Positions 14,390 to 55,758 of a DNA stretch of 58,920 bases are shown here, piece after piece (the first letter of the stretch is position 1; the number at the start of each line of letters is the position of its first letter). The position numbers and the translations under genes are program-made. The notes beneath the pieces were generated by a model. It had not been told where the DNA came from. It made no database searches and was given only the letters and a program-made list of their open reading frames with translations. Source of the DNA: a bacterium (GTDB lineage: Bacteria > Patescibacteriota > Minisyncoccia > UBA6257 > 2-01-FULL-56-20); the NCBI GenBank assembly GCA_027310625.1, contig DAIDAM010000014.1, forward strand, positions 1 through 58,920. Direction: 5' to 3'.

Positions 14390-15689
14390 GTTTGGCCCCG
14401 AATATATCGTCGAAGTTTATGACCCGGCACTTGGGATGGAGGGGTTTTTAGTTATTGATAACACCGCGCTCGGCCCGGGCAAGGGCGGGATACGGATGAC
14501 TCCGGATGTGACCGCGGAGGAAATTTTCCGGCTGGCGCGAACGATGACGTGGAAAAACGCTCTTGCGGGAATTCCTTTCGGCGGCGCCAAAGCCGGAATT
14601 GTCTGGCCGCCTCGACGTACTCGAGACAGGAGAGACGGTTCGGATGTCCCTTTTAATTCGGATGGGCGCATTCGCCCGCCCGCCTTGCTTCGCAACGCGA
14701 AGCGGGCAGGCAGCGCGCTTTCGGATGCCCTGAAGAAAAAATTTATCCAAAGTTTCGCGCGGAGAATTTCCGTTTTCACGCCGAGGAAATATATTGCCGG
14801 GCCGGACGTTAATACCGGCGAACGGGAAATGAAATGGTTCGTGGAAGCGACGGGGAACTGGCGGAGCGCCACGGGCAAGCCGGCGAATGTTTGCATAGAA
14901 ACTTTCGGCAGGGGAACCGCCCGCCTTAAAGCGGGCGAGCCTCGCCCCGCCAGCTGGCGGGGCGGGAAATGCGGCATACCGCACGAATTCGGCAGCACCG
15001 GTTTCGGTGTCGTGGAATCAACCGAGGTCGCCGCCGAACTTGCCCTCCCAAGTTTCCGAAGCAGAAATTTGGGAGGGTGGGCCGGGATTCCCCTTGAAAA
15101 CGCGACCGTTGCCATTCACGGCTTCGGTAACGTCGGAACGTTTACCTATGAGTTTTTGAGAGCAAAAGGCGCGAAAGTTGTCGCGCTTGCCGACAAAAGC
15201 GGTGCCGTGTTTTCAAAAAACGGATTCGACAGAAAAACGATTGCGGAAGCGATTGCCCGAAAAAAATCTCTAACCGCCGTTTTTCCGAAGTCCAAAATAA
15301 GCGAGAAAAAATTCTGGGGTTTACCGGTGGACATACTGATTCCCGCTTCCGTTACCGACGTCATCAACGATTCCAACAAAAATTCCATCTGCGCCAAAAT
15401 CATTGTCGAAGCCGGAAATATTCCAATGAGCGAGAAAATCGAAAAAGAACTTTTCCGAAAAGGAATTTTGATCATTCCCGATTTTGTCGCCAACGCCGGC
15501 GGCGTAATTTCGTCCTACGCGGAATACCGAGGATACAATCCCAAAAAGATGTTCGATTTGGTCAGCAGAAAAATCAGGGAAGCGACGCGTCTTGTTTTGG
15601 AGCAAAGCATCAAAGAAAAAAGAAATCCCCGCGACGTCGCGATGGAAATCGCCGGTAAAAAAGTTGAAGAGAGAATGAAAAGAATATAA
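14352..15689 (+). CDS. gdh: Glu/Leu/Phe/Val dehydrogenase family enzyme (probable glutamate dehydrogenase)
   Basis: FLVIDNTALGPGKGGIRM, GGAKAGI, AGPDVNTGE and the Rossmann motif AIHGFGNVG. It is interrupted by three palindromic inserts. Confidence 0.85.
   Translation: MPSKKASGIKRDKFGPEYIVEVYDPALGMEGFLVIDNTALGPGKGGIRMTPDVTAEEIFRLARTMTWKNALAGIPFGGAKAGIVWPPRRTRDRRDGSDVPFNSDGRIRPPALLRNAKRAGSALSDALKKKFIQSFARRISVFTPRKYIAGPDVNTGEREMKWFVEATGNWRSATGKPANVCIETFGRGTARLKAGEPRPASWRGGKCGIPHEFGSTGFGVVESTEVAAELALPSFRSRNLGGWAGIPLENATVAIHGFGNVGTFTYEFLRAKGAKVVALADKSGAVFSKNGFDRKTIAEAIARKKSLTAVFPKSKISEKKFWGLPVDILIPASVTDVINDSNKNSICAKIIVEAGNIPMSEKIEKELFRKGILIIPDFVANAGGVISSYAEYRGYNPKKMFDLVSRKIREATRLVLEQSIKEKRNPRDVAMEIAGKKVEERMKRI
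14608..14725. repeat. Insert 1 in gdh (GC-rich palindromes)
   Basis: Contains ctcgacgtactcgag and cccgccttgcttcgcaacgcgaagcgggcagg, read as RRTRDRRDGSDVPFNSDGRIRPPALLRNAKRAGSALS. Boundaries are approximate. Confidence 0.55.
14910..14995. repeat. Insert 2 in gdh (two GC hairpins)
   Basis: Contains cccgccttaaagcgggc, ccccgccagctggcgggg and tgcggcataccgca, read as GTARLKAGEPRPASWRGGKCGIP. Boundaries are approximate. Confidence 0.55.
15043..15077. repeat. Insert 3 in gdh: CCCTCC..GGAGGG hairpin family
   Basis: Sequence is ccctcccaagtttccgaagcagaaatttgggaggg. It belongs to the same family as 26136-26167 and 57004-57036. Confidence 0.65.
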
Positions 15690-42313: not shown

Positions 42314-42424
42314 TATTGCGCCGATTTTCAGCGTCTGTTAATATTCTAAACGATCGGCAATCGAAAGCACCTTTAGCTCCTGCCTTCGCATAAAAGCTGC
42401 GGCGGGCAGGCAGTGCAGGGCTTT

Positions 42425-42496
42425 GGGCACATAGCTCAGTGGTAGAGCGCTATCTTCACACGATAGAGGTCCAAGGTTCAATCCCTTGTGTGCCCA
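42425..42496 (+). tRNA. tRNA-Val (anticodon CAC)
   Basis: Acceptor stem gggcaca/tgtgccc, D arm gctcagtggtagagc, anticodon arm ctatc-ttCACac-gatag, and T arm caagg-ttcaatc-ccttg. Confidence 0.9.
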
Positions 42497-42510
42497 CAAA
42501 ACAAACAATT

Positions 42511-47064: not shown

Positions 47065-48993
47065 ATGGCAAAAATTTTAGGCATAGATCTCGGTACGACC
47101 AACTCCGCGATGGCGATTGTTGAGGGGGGCGAGCCGCGCATTCTTGAAAATGCAGAGGGGGCAAGAACGACTCCCTCCGTTGCCGCGATAAGCAAAGCTG
47201 GCGAACGCCTTGTCGGGCTTCTCGCCAAAAGACAGGCGATAACGAATCCCAAAAACACAATCTTTTCCGTGAAGCGTTTGATAGGCAGGAAGTTCGCCGA
47301 CGCCGAAGTGCAGCGCGACAAGGCCTGGCTGCCTTACGACCTTCAGGGAAGCGCGGCCGGCGGCGTGGAAGTGAAAATGTCCGCCCCTGCGGGGCGAGAT
47401 CTCGCCCCCGGAGGGGGCGGAGGCGATAAATGGTACTCGCCGGAGGAAATTTCTTCTTTCATTTTGGCGAAACTCAAAGCCGACGCCGAGGCGAAACTCG
47501 GAGAAAAAATAGAGGAAGTGGTGATTACTGTTCCGGCTTATTTCGACGACTCCCAAAGGCAGGCAACCAAAAACGCGGGCGAAATCGCCGGCTTGAAAGT
47601 GCGCCGGATTATCAACGAACCGACGGCGGCGGCGCTCGCTTACGGTTTGAACAAGCAAAAGAACGAAAAAATAGTCGTTTACGACTTCGGCGGCGGAACT
47701 TTCGACGTTTCCGTTCTGGAAGTCGGCGACGACACTGTTGAAGCGCGCGCCACGGGCGGCGACACGCATCTCGGCGGCGACGACTTTGATAAAAGAATCA
47801 ACGAGTACCTTGTCGCCGAATACAAAAAACAGGAAGGAATAGACATTTTCAAAGACCCGCTTGCGCTCCAGCGTTTGAAAGAAGGAGTGGAACGCGCGAA
47901 ACATGAACTTTCAACGGTTGCCGAAACGGAGGTGAATCTTCCTTATATCACTTCCGATGCTTCCGGTCCGAAACATTTTTTGCTCAAACTTTCGCGCGCG
48001 AAGCTGGAATCGCTCGTTCAGGACTACATTGACCAGTCGATAAAACTGACGGAAGAGACGGTGAAAAGCGCCGGCTTCCAACTTTCTGAAATCAACGAAG
48101 TGATTCTCGTCGGCGGACAAACGAGAATGCCGGCGATGCAGGAAGCGGTCAAGAAACTTTTCGGCAAGGAACCGCACAAAGGAATCAATCCCGACGAAGT
48201 CGTGGCGCTCGGCGCCGCGGTGCAGGCGGGAATTTTGCAGGGGGATGTAAAAGACATCCTTCTTCTTGATGTAACTCCTCTCACTTTGAGCATAGAGACG
48301 CTTGGCTCCATTGCGACGCCGATGATTGTGAAGAATACGACTATCCCCACGTCAAAGACGCAGGTTTTTTCAACTGCAGCCGATAATCAGACCTCCGTTG
48401 AAATTCATGTTCTCCAAGGCGAGCGTCCGATGGCGGCGGACAATAAAACCCTCGCGCGTTTCGTTTTGGACGGCATTCCGCCTTCGCCGCGCGGATTGCC
48501 GCAGATTGAAGTTATGTTCGACATTGACGCGAACGGAATACTGAACGTTTCGGCGAAAGACAAAGCGACGGGAAAATCGCAGTCGGTGAGAATCGAGGCC
48601 TCCACCAGTTTGTCGAAAGACGAAGTTGAGAAATTGAAGAACGAGGCGGCGAAGTACGCTTCGGAAGACCAGAATAAACGCGACCTCGCCGAAGCAAGAA
48701 ATCAGGCGGAAGCCCTGATTTACACGGCCGAAAAAGCCGTCAAAGACCTGTCCGCGCCCACTAGCGCAGGCGGGCAGGCGGGCGCCGGCGACAAACTAGC
48801 TGCCGACGCAAGGTCCGCAATAACGGCAAAAATAGACGCTCTTAAAAAATTGCTTCAGGAAAACAGAGATGCTGACGCAATAAAATCGGGCATCGCCGAG
48901 CTTTCGGCGGAAATTCAGAAAATAGGGCAGAGCGCCTACAGCCCTCAGGACGAGGGAGAAAATAATCCGGAGACAGATAATCAAGCTAAATAA
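47065..48993 (+). CDS. dnaK: molecular chaperone DnaK
   Basis: [33 protein letters not shown] and the substrate-binding domain. It contains a 45-bp palindromic insert. Confidence 0.97.
47380..47424. repeat. 45-bp TCCGCC..AGATCT..GGCGGAGGC insert in dnaK
   Basis: Sequence is tccgcccctgcggggcgagatctcgcccccggagggggcggaggc, read as [15 protein letters not shown]. Confidence 0.75.
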
Positions 48994-53471: not shown

Positions 53472-54650
53472 ATGGGTAAAGATTACTACAAAATTCTCGG
53501 CATTGATAAAAGCGCTTCCGATGAAGAAGTAAAAAAAGCCTACCGTCGACTGGCGCATAAATACCATCCCGATAAAGCGGGCGGCAACGAAAGCAAATTC
53601 AAGGAAATAAACGAAGCGTATCAGGTGCTTTCGGACAAATCCAGGCGCGCGAATTACGACCGCTTCGGCGCGGCGGAGCCGTTCTCCGGATTCGGCGGAA
53701 AAAATCCTTTCGAGGGGTTTTCGGTTGATTTCGGGGGTTTTGGAAGCGGTTTCTCCGCCGGAGGCGGACCAGCCTCGGGCTGGGGCGGCGGGCCGGGATT
53801 CAATCAAGATTTTTCTTTTTACAACGCCAGCGACGTGAGCGACATGTTTGAAAACTTTTTTGAAGAACTCGGCGTAAAACCGCGAAGGCGAACCTACGAG
53901 CGCGGCTCCGACATAGAGGTTATTCAGGAAATAACTCTTGAAGAGGCGTTTCGCGGAACGATGCGCGACGTAAGAGTAAATCTTTTTGTCACGTGCAGCG
54001 AATGCAAGGGCAGAGGCGGCGATTTATCCGCCGGAATGAAGACATGCGAAACATGTTCGGGGAAGGGCGAAATACGCGAGAAAAGGCAGACGTTTTTCGG
54101 CAGCTTTTCGCAAATAAAAACCTGTGACAGATGCCGCGGTTCGGGAAAAATACCGAACAAAATTTGCAGAGCGTGCAGCGGCAGCGGAAGAATGCGCGGC
54201 GAAAGAAACGTCAGGATCGAAATTTTGCCCGGCGTCCAGGACAACCAAATAATAAAAGTTAAAGGAGCAGGAGAGGCGGGCGAACTCGGGACGCCCGCGG
54301 GAGATCTTTATGTGCGGTTGAAAATAGCGCCCCACTCCGTTTTTGAACGAAGAGGCGACGACCTTGTTGTAAGGAAAGAATTGAAGATAGTTGACCTTCT
54401 TCTCGGAAAGAAAATTGAAGTGCCGACGATAAGCGGCGGAAAAATTTCGGTTGAAATACCGGCTCACTTCAATTTAAGAGATGATTTGCGGATACCAGGA
54501 GAAGGAATGCCGCACCTCTCCGCCGGAGGCGGATCCGCCTTTGGCGGAGGCAACAGAGGGAACTTGCTCGTGAATTTCGTTATCAAGGCCCCGAAAAAAT
54601 TAAGCCACAAAGCGAAAAAACTTCTTGAAGAATTGGAGAAGGAAGAGTAG
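53472..54650 (+). CDS. dnaJ: molecular chaperone DnaJ
   Basis: J domain (DYYKILGI...HPDK), a G/F region, and four CxxCxGxG zinc motifs. It contains a 33-bp palindromic insert near the C-terminus. Confidence 0.95.
   Translation: MGKDYYKILGIDKSASDEEVKKAYRRLAHKYHPDKAGGNESKFKEINEAYQVLSDKSRRANYDRFGAAEPFSGFGGKNPFEGFSVDFGGFGSGFSAGGGPASGWGGGPGFNQDFSFYNASDVSDMFENFFEELGVKPRRRTYERGSDIEVIQEITLEEAFRGTMRDVRVNLFVTCSECKGRGGDLSAGMKTCETCSGKGEIREKRQTFFGSFSQIKTCDRCRGSGKIPNKICRACSGSGRMRGERNVRIEILPGVQDNQIIKVKGAGEAGELGTPAGDLYVRLKIAPHSVFERRGDDLVVRKELKIVDLLLGKKIEVPTISGGKISVEIPAHFNLRDDLRIPGEGMPHLSAGGGSAFGGGNRGNLLVNFVIKAPKKLSHKAKKLLEELEKEE
54519..54551. repeat. 33-bp TCCGCC..GGATCC..GGCGGAGGC insert in dnaJ
   Basis: Sequence is tccgccggaggcggatccgcctttggcggaggc, read as SAGGGSAFGGG. 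Confidence 0.75.
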
Positions 54651-54676
54651 AATTGGTTCGCTATTCCGCACAGATT

Positions 54677-54699
54677 GCGCCCATAGCTCAATTGGTAGA
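54677..54699 (+). pseudogene. tRNA 5' fragment (acceptor plus D arm only), degenerate duplicate
   Basis: Sequence gcgcccatagctcaattggtaga is identical to 54799-54821. It is followed by unrelated hairpins. Confidence 0.5.
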
Positions 54700-54798
54700 C
54701 CTGCCCACCGTAGCTTTAGCGAAGGAAGGGCAGCCCCCTTTATAAAATTTTAATCACGATTAAAATTTTATCAGTCGGTTCGCTCGCCGAAAATAAAT

Positions 54799-55064
54799 GC
54801 GCCCATAGCTCAATTGGTAGAGCAGCTCCCTTTAGCAATCGTAGATTGCTCAATTGGTTCGTTCGGCTAAAATAAATGTACCAGTAATGCCCCGTTAGCT
54901 CAGTTGGTAGAGCAGCTCCCTTTTAAGGAGAAGGTCGCAGGTTCGAGACCTGCACGGGGTACATTTATTTTACTCCTCACTTTACAATTGTAAGGAGAAG
55001 GTTCCAGGCCTGCTCCGTATAATTGCGAAGCAATTTGTTCGGGGTTCGAGACCTGGTGGGCGCA
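54799..55064 (+). other. disrupted/split tRNA-Lys-like gene in three pieces: 54799-54833, 54991-55008 and 55045-55064
   Basis: Joined together, the three pieces give a perfect cloverleaf: GCGCCCA TA GCTC AATTGGTA GAGC A GCTCC CTTTTAA GGAGA AGGTT CCAGG TTCGAGA CCTGG TGGGCGC A. Confidence 0.5.
54889..54961 (+). tRNA. tRNA-Lys (anticodon TTT)
   Basis: Acceptor stem gccccgt/acggggt, D arm gctcagttggtagagc, anticodon arm gctcc-ctTTTaa-ggaga, and T arm gcagg-ttcgaga-cctgc. Total length is 73 nt. Confidence 0.88.
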
Positions 55065-55092
55065 CACACTTTATAGTTGGTAAAATTTCATC

Positions 55093-55758
55093 ATGGTACG
55101 AGGCGACATTTTGCTTATCTTGGATCCAAGGGTTCTCGCCGTTCCCGTCGAAGACAACGGAGATTTACTGGTCGACCTGAGAGATTTAAAAGAACTGTTG
55201 GTTGATAACAGAAAGAGCAAGGCCTCCAATTCTTTTTCTTACATACGCCAATCCGTCGCATCGAAACTTCTCGAAGCTCAGCGAGCATTGCCAAAGAACA
55301 TGCGCTTGCTAATCATCGAGGGGCACCGGTCGCTTTCCCTGCAAAAACAGTATTTCGACGATTACTCTGATGAACTTAAGAAATTACATTCGGAGTGGTC
55401 GGCTGAAAAAATATATCAAGAAGCAAGTAAGTATGTCGCTTCTCCGGCTATCAATCCGCCCCACTCTACGGGAGGCGCTGTTGATTTGACTCTTGTTGAT
55501 GAAACCGGAAAAGAATTGGATATGGGGACTCGGGTTAACGCCGACCCGGAGGAAAGTCGGAACGCCTGTTTCACTTACGCGGAAAATATTTCGGAAAATG
55601 CGAAAAAAAATCGTAAGATTCTAAATGTCATTATGTCCCGGAACGGATTCGTTAATTATCCAACCGAATGGTGGCACTGGTCCTATGGCGACAGGTATTG
55701 GGCATACAATCAAAATAAGTCGCACGCGATCTTTGACTCGGTGGAAACGCCGCAATAA
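55093..55758 (+). CDS. ddpX: D-alanyl-D-alanine dipeptidase (VanX/DdpX, peptidase M15D)
   Basis: EGHRS, SPHSTGGAVDL (the SxHxxGxAxD motif) and EWWHWSYGD. Confidence 0.85.
   Translation: MVRGDILLILDPRVLAVPVEDNGDLLVDLRDLKELLVDNRKSKASNSFSYIRQSVASKLLEAQRALPKNMRLLIIEGHRSLSLQKQYFDDYSDELKKLHSEWSAEKIYQEASKYVASPAINPPHSTGGAVDLTLVDETGKELDMGTRVNADPEESRNACFTYAENISENAKKNRKILNVIMSRNGFVNYPTEWWHWSYGDRYWAYNQNKSHAIFDSVETPQ

Follow-up and report, generated by a model that had tools for sequence, protein, structure and literature searches.

How does an intact gene for tRNA-Lys come to lie between the pieces of a second one, and which of the two is in use? The question is raised by a locus at positions 54651-55079 of a 58,920-nucleotide (nt) stretch of DNA from a patescibacterium (GenBank assembly GCA_027310625.1, contig DAIDAM010000014.1), which at its full length is referred to below as the window. 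A sequence-only reading had left three options: the decay of a tRNA gene by palindromic elements, an insertion cassette with a tRNA of its own, or a gene that depends on unusual RNA processing or splicing. From the comparison with homologous loci, the locus is likely to be a relic, devoid of a nuclease gene, of small selfish cassettes with tRNA genes as their targets; the inner gene would be the working one and the outer gene a pseudogene. It may further be read as the degenerate remainder of at least two such invasions. All features of the locus described below lie on the plus strand.

The outer gene is present in three pieces. Positions 1-35 of a tRNA-Lys, the 5' half of the nested outer gene (F2), are found at 54799-54833, positions 36-53 (F3) at 54991-55008 and positions 54-73 (F4), including the 3' strand of the acceptor stem TGGGCGC and A73, at 55045-55064. 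The acceptor ends of this gene read GCGCCCA...TGGGCGCA. An insert of 157 nt separates the pieces in the anticodon loop (54834-54990) and one of 36 nt separates them in the T loop (55009-55044), exactly where they had been placed from the sequence alone. F3 was recognised as a member of a repeat family, and its similarity may begin as early as 54988 (position 33), with one mismatch. The outer gene is thus broken at 35/36, not at 37/38, and again within the T loop. When the three pieces are joined, the resulting 73 nt are called by ARAGORN as tRNA-Lys(UUU), with 7/7 pairs in the acceptor stem and 5/5 in the T stem. The cloverleaf had been described as flawless; the stems just named bear this out, but a G27-A43 mismatch is present, and the inner gene has the same mismatch. 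The joined outer gene and the inner gene differ at 11 of their 73 positions. Between the two genes, the stem pairs 3-70, 6-67, 7-66 and 49-65 are altered on both strands, and because these four compensated pairs span separate pieces, the outer pieces represent one distinct gene rather than chance copies of the inner one. An uninterrupted tRNA-Lys in a Terrybacteria metagenome-assembled genome (MAG; locus L020) is identical to the joined outer gene at 69/73 positions.

The gene enclosed by these pieces is the single intact tRNA-Lys(UUU) of the locus. ARAGORN and Rfam (67.4 bits) agree on its position at 54889-54961 (54962 at the outermost), where it had already been recognised. Its acceptor is of the GCCCCGT type, and it is presumed to be the working gene; we infer the outer gene to be a pseudogene. 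The 157-nt insert around it opens with a 7-base-pair (bp) hairpin (agcaatc gta gattgct) at 54834-54850 (-6.6 kcal/mol, z-score -2.8), continues with a flank copy and the inner tRNA leader (54851-54888), and ends with the 29-nt trailer of the inner tRNA (54962-54990). By alignment, the leader has counterparts in the loci L060 and L072; for the trailer, homologs exist in these two loci and in L058. The trailer motif CACTTTACAATTG is repeated 3' of the end of the outer gene. Leader and trailer are linked by an inverted repeat with arms at 54868-54882 and 54958-54972, the right arm overlapping the final 4 nt of the inner tRNA. The repeat had been noted with arms of 14 nt; it is real, though its arms measure 15 nt with 100% complementarity. 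It may serve as an RNA processing helix or may be a repeat at the DNA level. In L060 the leader/trailer complementarity is found with two compensated changes, and other forms of it occur in L058 and L065. A further peculiarity concerns the top of the acceptor stem: inner-type tRNA-Lys genes carry a G1-U72 wobble in the window and in L042, L061, L070, L074 and L075, and G1-C72 is found in other copies.

Upstream of F2 lies another 5' remnant, which had been taken for a partial duplicate limited to 54677-54699. This part is indeed a copy of positions 1-23 of an outer-type tRNA-Lys (F1a, 24/24 identity to 54798-54821). The copy does not stop there, however, and resumes at 54730-54741 with positions 24-35 (F1b, repeat family), with the single mismatch T29C, to end once more in the anticodon loop. 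Without its insert and combined with the 3' pieces, F1 is likewise called as tRNA-Lys by ARAGORN. The insert in question is a 30-nt hairpin in the D arm, between positions 23 and 24 (54700-54729), and a homologous insert occupies the same site in L060 (alignment). CCTGCC / GGAAGG, the arms of this hairpin, agree with the outer arms of a palindrome of 20 bp (there GGCAGG), and the centre is replaced by CCGTAGCTTTAGCGAAGG. Together with the flanking GCAG, the insert has a predicted fold of -14.1 kcal/mol. In L070 and L078, the matching D-arm site is occupied by the canonical palindrome itself, CCTGCCTGCCGGCAGGCAGG. The insert also contains, at 54708-54725, a hairpin core CCG-W-AGC-TTTA-RCG-W-AGG that is nested in larger hairpins elsewhere as well (L035 6676-6693, L050 3214-3231, L060 352-369, L073 3694-3711 and 3799-3816); in this core two G-A mismatches surround a W-W pair, which co-varies in most copies.

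Straight after the anticodon-loop junction of F1 follows an AT-rich perfect hairpin with 14-bp arms (54742-54771; inverted repeat, z-score -5.1). The junction motif of the window, CCCTTTATAAAAT, resembles the junction that stands ahead of the start codon of a GIY-YIG nuclease gene in L078. Each tRNA unit is moreover preceded by an upstream flank of ~28 nt. A weak first copy (gaattggttcgct...) is found at 54651-54676, directly downstream of a promoter-like site at 54625-54653; the second copy (cagtcggttcgctcgccgaaaataaat) at 54772-54798 is 83% identical to 54850-54878, and the third is the one joined to the inner leader at 54851-54888 (repeat families). On the other side, the outer gene is followed by its native 3' flank (CACTTTATAGTTG, 55067-55079, repeat family), which is similar to 54978-54990. 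The repeated flank (GAATTGGTTCG...) was also considered as decayed coding sequence for a GIY-YIG C terminus (...GAATGGATTAAA...), and this candidate was dropped as the match is too short to claim.

The anatomy of the locus is not unique to the window. A scan of species-representative genomes with the first 25 nt of the outer gene yielded 46 loci, mostly ordinary tRNA-Lys genes. The first 33 nt of the inner gene were found in 22 metagenome loci, and about half of the distinct loci among these have tRNA-Lys fragments around the intact gene. Architectures like that of the window recur in contigs of Patescibacteria (candidate phyla radiation), with a junction in the anticodon loop at 35-38, a D-arm hairpin at 23/24 and a T-loop insert at 53/54. 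L060 parallels the window piece by piece: a 5' half with the homologous 30-nt D-arm insert is followed by an AT hairpin, a flank, an intact gene, a trailer and a 3' half (alignment); its AT hairpin is a homolog of 54742-54771 with a compensated stem change. L072 and L058 share part of the layout, and the 7-bp hairpin of 54834-54850 is also found at the corresponding place in L072. The genomic surroundings vary: DnaJ lies upstream in L058 and L075, as it does in the window, and L060 and L072 are found in other contexts. Even the DnaJ-linked tRNA-Lys loci (window, L058 and L075) differ in their sets of remnants.

What the fuller relatives contain is a nuclease gene. In many homologous loci, a stand-alone GIY-YIG gene of the UPF0213 type, encoding 80-90 amino acids (aa), separates the tRNA remnant from the intact tRNA. 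The same nest as in the window is seen in L042 from a Saccharibacteria MAG (equal to L067 and L076), with the nuclease gene inside the insert. The order there is the outer 5' half up to position 35, a spacer of 82 nt, a complete inner-type tRNA-Lys(CUU), the GIY-YIG open reading frame (ORF), a run of hairpins and the outer 3' end ctggtgggcgta. The inner tRNA of L042 has ends (GCCCCGT...ACGGGGTA) identical to those of the window. Most of the outer 3' half is gone in this locus. In L070, L077 and L078/79, a 5' half (to 35-38) with a D-arm palindrome precedes the GIY-YIG gene, which in turn precedes an intact tRNA-Lys. L070 consists of a 5' half (1-38) with the palindrome CCTGCCTGCCGGTAGGCAGG after GGTAGA (23/24), the nuclease ORF and an intact inner-type tRNA-Lys. 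L009 and L019 show a tRNA-Lys, then the GIY-YIG ORF, then a 3' tRNA remnant that begins in the D arm. In L080/81, the intact tRNA-Lys is flanked by two GIY-YIG genes; a hairpin replaces the anticodon arm of the 3' remnant, and the 53/54 insert is present. The T-loop insert site of the window and its frame CAG(R)CCTGYYCCG...CGGGRTTCGA match this L080/81 remnant beside the nuclease gene. The first 720 nt of L009 also hold four tRNA-Lys-like copies in which the anticodon loop has become a tetraloop hairpin (AATCCGAC-NNAG-TCGGAT), around an intact tRNA-Lys(CUU) and the GIY-YIG gene, the 3' end of which reads into a tRNA remnant.

Different states of the nuclease gene can be observed at corresponding sites. 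L077 and L078 have in common the gene order tRNA-Arg, Lys-CTT, Lys-TTT and CCA-adding enzyme. In L077, a remnant, a palindrome and a GIY-YIG gene lead up to Lys-CTT, and a second remnant, a palindrome and a truncated GIY-YIG gene lead up to Lys-TTT. L078/79 has kept both sites; its nuclease gene is lost at Lys-CTT and intact at Lys-TTT, and a third tRNA copy with the palindrome is present. The gene is thus intact, truncated or absent at corresponding positions of the two loci.

The design extends beyond tRNA-Lys. It was found with tRNA-Gly (L082), tRNA-His (L083, from an Omnitrophota MAG), tRNA-Glu (L084) and tRNA-Val (L086), as well as on a viral contig (L128), and the same plan appeared in every genomic context that was looked up for the GIY-YIG homologs. 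When a hidden Markov model (HMM) of the family was run over ~450 kb of tRNA-Lys loci, for which a DNA pattern had been the sole criterion of retrieval, five distinct GIY-YIG genes were recovered, all within ~350 nt of a tRNA-Lys. ORFs of this kind are present in L042, L070, L077, L078, L080, L083, L084 and L086, and the GIY-YIG ORFs match Pfam PF01541 with E = 2e-15 to 9e-18. The proteins consist of the GIY-YIG domain only, and no separate DNA-binding domain was matched in their 80-90 aa. Their best matches in the PDB are the UPF0213 proteins 1ywl (EF2693, E = 1.5e-7) and 1zg2 (BH0048, E = 2.9e-6). Against the NCBIfam model for group I intron endonucleases, the nuclease scores 21.6 bits, below the cut-off of 56. 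A word-indexed search with the L070 protein gives 123 homologs at E <= 1e-10, and an exhaustive one matches it to 8,126 cluster representatives at E <= 1e-3. Many of the GIY-YIG proteins as called (P0241-P0388) are longer at the N terminus by 20-50 residues or show two matched stretches, as might be expected if gene callers had read through tRNA remnants or fused tandem copies.

A 20-bp perfect palindrome, CCTGCCTGCCGG(C/T)AGGCAGG, marks the dead tRNA copies of these loci. It lies in their D arm, 17-35 nt upstream of GIY-YIG start codons, and does so across phyla. Copies are found at L070 2643-2662, L077 1462-1481 and 1872-1891, L078 1254, 1462 and 1856, L080 56-75, L083 1165-1184 (here, too, at the D arm) and L084 824-843, and in L087-L133; the tRNA-His and tRNA-Glu loci carry the same palindrome as the tRNA-Lys loci. 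The exact 20 bp were not found in the window, and no paper containing the sequence was found. The palindromes may split direct repeats and so stabilise the insertion, they may stabilise the mRNA, or they may constitute an independent mobile hairpin.

In the window, the hallmarks of the cassettes are all present with the exception of the nuclease gene: 5' remnants that run to position 35 (where 5' remnants occur in other loci, most of them end at 35-38), a 23/24 insert in the D arm, the junction motif and a T-loop insert at 53/54, next to an intact tRNA-Lys. The insertion cassette with its own tRNA is accordingly the best supported of the three original options, given the nest in L042 and the common occurrence of related cassettes. 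The option of decay by palindromic elements was right in part, as the D-arm and T-loop inserts belong to hairpin families that recur in dead tRNA copies elsewhere. If the window copy is derived from a cassette, it can only be a relic, because the window contains no nuclease gene. Since the outer acceptor strands lie farthest from the break and match each other, the outer gene would be the resident and the inner gene the import. The history could then have proceeded as follows. A first invasion of a resident outer-type gene (acceptor GCGCCCA) would have left F1. A cassette with a whole inner-type tRNA (acceptor GCCCCGT) and its own flanks would next have entered the anticodon loop of the restored gene, so that F2 and F3/F4 came to lie on opposite sides of it. 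Finally, the nuclease genes would have been lost; intermediate stages of such a loss are seen in L077 and L078.

The proposed mechanism goes beyond the observed anatomy and associations and is modelled on the phage endonuclease SegB. The nuclease would cut an uninvaded tRNA gene, and an invaded copy would provide the template for recombinational repair of the break, the tRNA halves being its homology arms. In this way, the target would receive the nuclease gene and, along with it, a whole or partial tRNA that preserves function. Afterwards, the nuclease gene would decay and be lost. The D- and T-arm sequences that many tRNAs have in common could explain the spread to other isotypes, although this is speculation.

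Several observations weigh against this account. By tblastn, and by the family HMM against all ORFs, neither a GIY-YIG ORF nor a recognisable remnant of one was found in the window, so that the link between the window and the nuclease rests on homology of architecture. The palindrome is also present in 47 stretches of IMG/VR viral contigs, where only 1/56 copies is near a GIY-YIG gene and 1/56 near a tRNA; these viral copies often sit between short direct repeats. As they rarely adjoin a tRNA or a GIY-YIG gene, the palindrome is not specific to nuclease cassettes, and the hairpins may be an independent element. Cleavage and mobility are ascribed by inference to proteins of 80-90 aa, in which the DNA-binding domain of SegB or I-TevI is not present. 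The model gives no reason why the intact tRNA beside a nuclease gene should escape cutting. Furthermore, the outer halves in the window are unusually perfect, and some constraint outside the model is hinted at by the leader/trailer inverted repeat and by the conservation of non-coding spacers.

Part of these points would be accommodated by a purely local history, in which two tRNA-Lys paralogs were rearranged by slippage or illegitimate recombination and were later hit by independent palindromic mini-elements, with no nuclease cassette involved. Such a history would account for a window that lacks a GIY-YIG gene, for a palindrome family that is widespread with no such gene nearby and for GC-rich palindromes elsewhere in the window, and the repeated units of flank and 5' half do resemble a tandem duplication. 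It is less at ease with the identical junctions, hairpin sites and homologous spacers that occur in unrelated genomic contexts, with matching sites that directly adjoin GIY-YIG genes in other loci, and with the junction motif CCCTTYTAAAAT that the window has in common with the junction at the L078 GIY-YIG start codon. One insertion is also simpler than two rearrangements as an origin for matching outer halves on both sides of the inner gene. We therefore regard a local history as unlikely, while it remains the strongest competitor of the cassette relic.

Attachment-site (att) remnants of integrase-type elements, either prophages or integrative and conjugative elements (ICEs), that were later deleted from the tRNA-Lys gene are a considerably poorer fit. 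A partial tRNA beside a complete one is the classical scar of integration (bioRxiv 10.1101/2022.07.05.498093), and at the VanX locus of L003 an element with Fic, primase-helicase and PIF1 genes adjoins a tRNA fragment. The inserts measure 55-157 nt and not kilobases, however, and the duplications consist of 5' halves whose ends lie in the anticodon loop, with hairpins in the D and T arms. No integrase-like ORF was seen among the ORFs near the locus, which were judged by eye with no recombinase domain search, and the fuller homologs hold a GIY-YIG gene and no recombinase. An origin from integrase-type elements is accordingly very improbable.

Slightly less credible still is a functional outer gene that is co-transcribed with the inner one and relieved of its inserts by unusual processing and ligation, to give a second tRNA-Lys(UUU). 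The three pieces do form a valid cloverleaf with co-varying stems, and in the predicted fold of the whole stretch of 266 nt the outer acceptor stem is closed (z-score -5.1). At the 3' junction, and only there, a 4-bp CAAU/AUUG helix with a 3-nt UAA bulge can be drawn by eye. The 5' junction, on the contrary, does not look like a bulge-helix-bulge (BHB) motif, as judged by eye with no dedicated BHB search. An Rfam E-value scan of 54300-55400 and nine related loci detected no group I intron, other ribozyme or known RNA family in the inserts, and returned only tRNAs and chance-level matches. In its intron-permissive mode, the check proposed for this option, ARAGORN calls only the inner gene in the native region and leaves the outer gene uncalled. 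The position of the break at 35/36 and the second break inside the T loop are further difficulties. In the homologous loci, the outer halves of L060 and those of L072 do not form a tRNA when joined, and the 3' half of L042 is mostly gone. The anticodon would merely duplicate that of the inner gene. Processing of the inner tRNA by RNase P and RNase Z would in addition cut the precursor, and we know of no bacterial pathway that rejoins such ends. The idea of unusual RNA processing or splicing is consequently not supported; group I introns and other known RNAs were rejected on the Rfam result.

An assembly artefact of collapsed or chimeric tRNA repeats is the least plausible of all, for although Logan contigs break inside the inner tRNA at the 28-35-nt repeats, those of two independent runs agree with the window base for base, beginning at 54902 or 54918 and including both the T-loop insert and the 3' piece, typical reads exceed the repeats in length, and homologous architectures exist in many unrelated data sets. 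Independent assembly support covers the locus from 54902/54918 onward; for 54651-54901, the present assembly is the sole source.

The window holds another, smaller scar of a similar type. Directly upstream of an intact tRNA-Val(CAC) at 42425-42497, a pattern match revealed a probable 5' remnant of a tRNA-Val (gcaccttTAGCTC ... CAGTG) at 42367-42424, also on the plus strand, with a CCTGCC...GGCAGG hairpin in its D arm. The insert of this remnant (42379-42410) reads CCTGCCCGCCGCAGCTTTTATGCGAAGGCAGG on the minus strand and was identified by pattern search as a second copy of the ~30-nt element at 54700-54729. With blastn-short, the inserts gave no additional copies in the window, and this search also missed the related element at 42379-42410.

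The genes around the tRNA-Lys locus are DnaJ upstream, an M15 dipeptidase downstream, and Ddl. Synteny was followed through the dipeptidase: relatives that are 73-77% identical carry a tRNA-Ser or a tRNA fragment and no tRNA-Lys, and no ancestral state was obtained along this route. In one of them, with 73% identity (L003 1-3900, its dipeptidase locus), the 3' fragment of a tRNA is found beside Fic, an AEP-type primase-helicase and PIF1, probably an integrated element. GC-rich palindromes elsewhere in the window are located at 54518-54549, inside DnaJ in a glycine-rich stretch near its C terminus, and at 14943-14964 and 47391-47408. In L056, ~90-60 nt upstream of a tRNA at 2071, lies a relative of the 36-nt hairpin that is inserted at 53/54 of the T arm (ccgtataattgcgaagcaatttgttcgggg); this relative, cccgaacaaatcgcttcgcgattatacgggg, is in reverse complement and has a compensated stem change, and a GCGAAGC mini-hairpin motif is common to both. 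Hairpin-rich stretches also occur before or after other tRNA-Lys genes, as in L046 (7300-7555, minus strand), L057 (6827-7020), L056, L065 and L094. The motif CGGGGTRAATRCCGC recurs in several of them, and in the four that were scanned (L046, L056, L057 and L065) there was no Rfam match.

For the window itself, the practical consequence is that the inner tRNA-Lys is the real gene and that annotators are warned to regard the surrounding tRNA-like pieces as scars. Beyond the window, a recurrent design emerges: a tiny GIY-YIG gene inside a partly or wholly duplicated tRNA gene, with a palindrome in the dead copy, for Lys, His, Gly, Glu and Val, among Patescibacteria as well as in one Omnitrophota MAG and one viral contig. 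We see an even chance that this design stands for something broader, in which the minimal UPF0213-type GIY-YIG nucleases with their 8,126 representatives would form a very large selfish class whose homing targets are tRNA genes, across numerous isotypes and phyla. The universally conserved sequences of the two arms, D and T, would serve as landing pads and homology arms, the tRNA would be rebuilt by duplication in part or in whole, and the dead copy would be marked with the conserved 20-bp palindrome CCTGCCTGCCGGCAGGCAGG. If homing is true, the UPF0213/COG2827 family gains a function, and tRNA genes would be universal landing pads for nuclease-type elements besides integrases. Homing would also explain assembly breaks at tRNA-Lys genes and the arrays of tRNA fragments in Patescibacteria.

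It remains to compare the locus with known systems. Interrupted tRNA genes that are mended at the RNA level include those with archaeal BHB introns, the split tRNAs and those with bacterial group I introns in the anticodon loop. The outer gene resembles these in its anticodon-loop break and in halves that give a valid cloverleaf. It differs in the lack of a ribozyme (Rfam), the break at 35/36, the additional T-loop break, an insert with a complete tRNA of the same anticodon, and the mismatched halves of its homologs. With the UPF0213/COG2827 proteins 1ywl and 1zg2, the associated nuclease shares its size and single-domain build; both PDB entries are labelled as hypothetical proteins and state no function.

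Partial tRNA copies that arise from mobile elements are already known, as are SegB-type nucleases linked to tRNA genes. Searches of the literature on GIY-YIG nucleases with tRNA fragments and on UPF0213 yielded no description of stand-alone UPF0213-type genes wedged into duplicated tRNA genes, whether in Patescibacteria or in other bacteria, of whole-tRNA nests or of conserved palindromes in dead copies. Integrase-mediated insertion of prophages and ICEs into tRNA genes leaves partial copies at attL/attR (bioRxiv 10.1101/2022.07.05.498093). Here, too, a mobile element would occupy a tRNA gene and make good the displaced part, with one complete gene kept and a partial copy left behind. In contrast to those insertions, no recombinase is seen at the locus (judged by eye) and the elements are ~0.1-0.6 kb; the 5' half or the whole tRNA is often duplicated, the junctions are in the anticodon loop or the D arm, and the remnants contain hairpins.

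The nearest known counterpart is SegB of the phages T4/T6, a free-standing homing endonuclease of the GIY-YIG type, encoded within clusters of tRNA genes, that recognises a T-psi-C stem-loop motif (PMC2330249, PMC13096335). SegB homes together with neighbouring tRNA genes and drives a recombination-dependent segmental amplification that includes truncated copies, and its homologs are statistically linked to tRNA genes (PMC2330249, PMC13096335). A GIY-YIG gene embedded among tRNA genes is likewise the arrangement in the loci homologous to the window. SegB, however, belongs to phages and has a NUMOD3 DNA-binding region at its C terminus, whereas the proteins described here comprise 80-90 aa of GIY-YIG domain only and are encoded on the chromosomes of Patescibacteria, Omnitrophota and others. 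The target tRNA is here split or duplicated, its dead copies contain conserved palindromes, and the window itself is without the nuclease gene. Should the small nucleases indeed home into tRNA genes, SegB would have a cellular counterpart.

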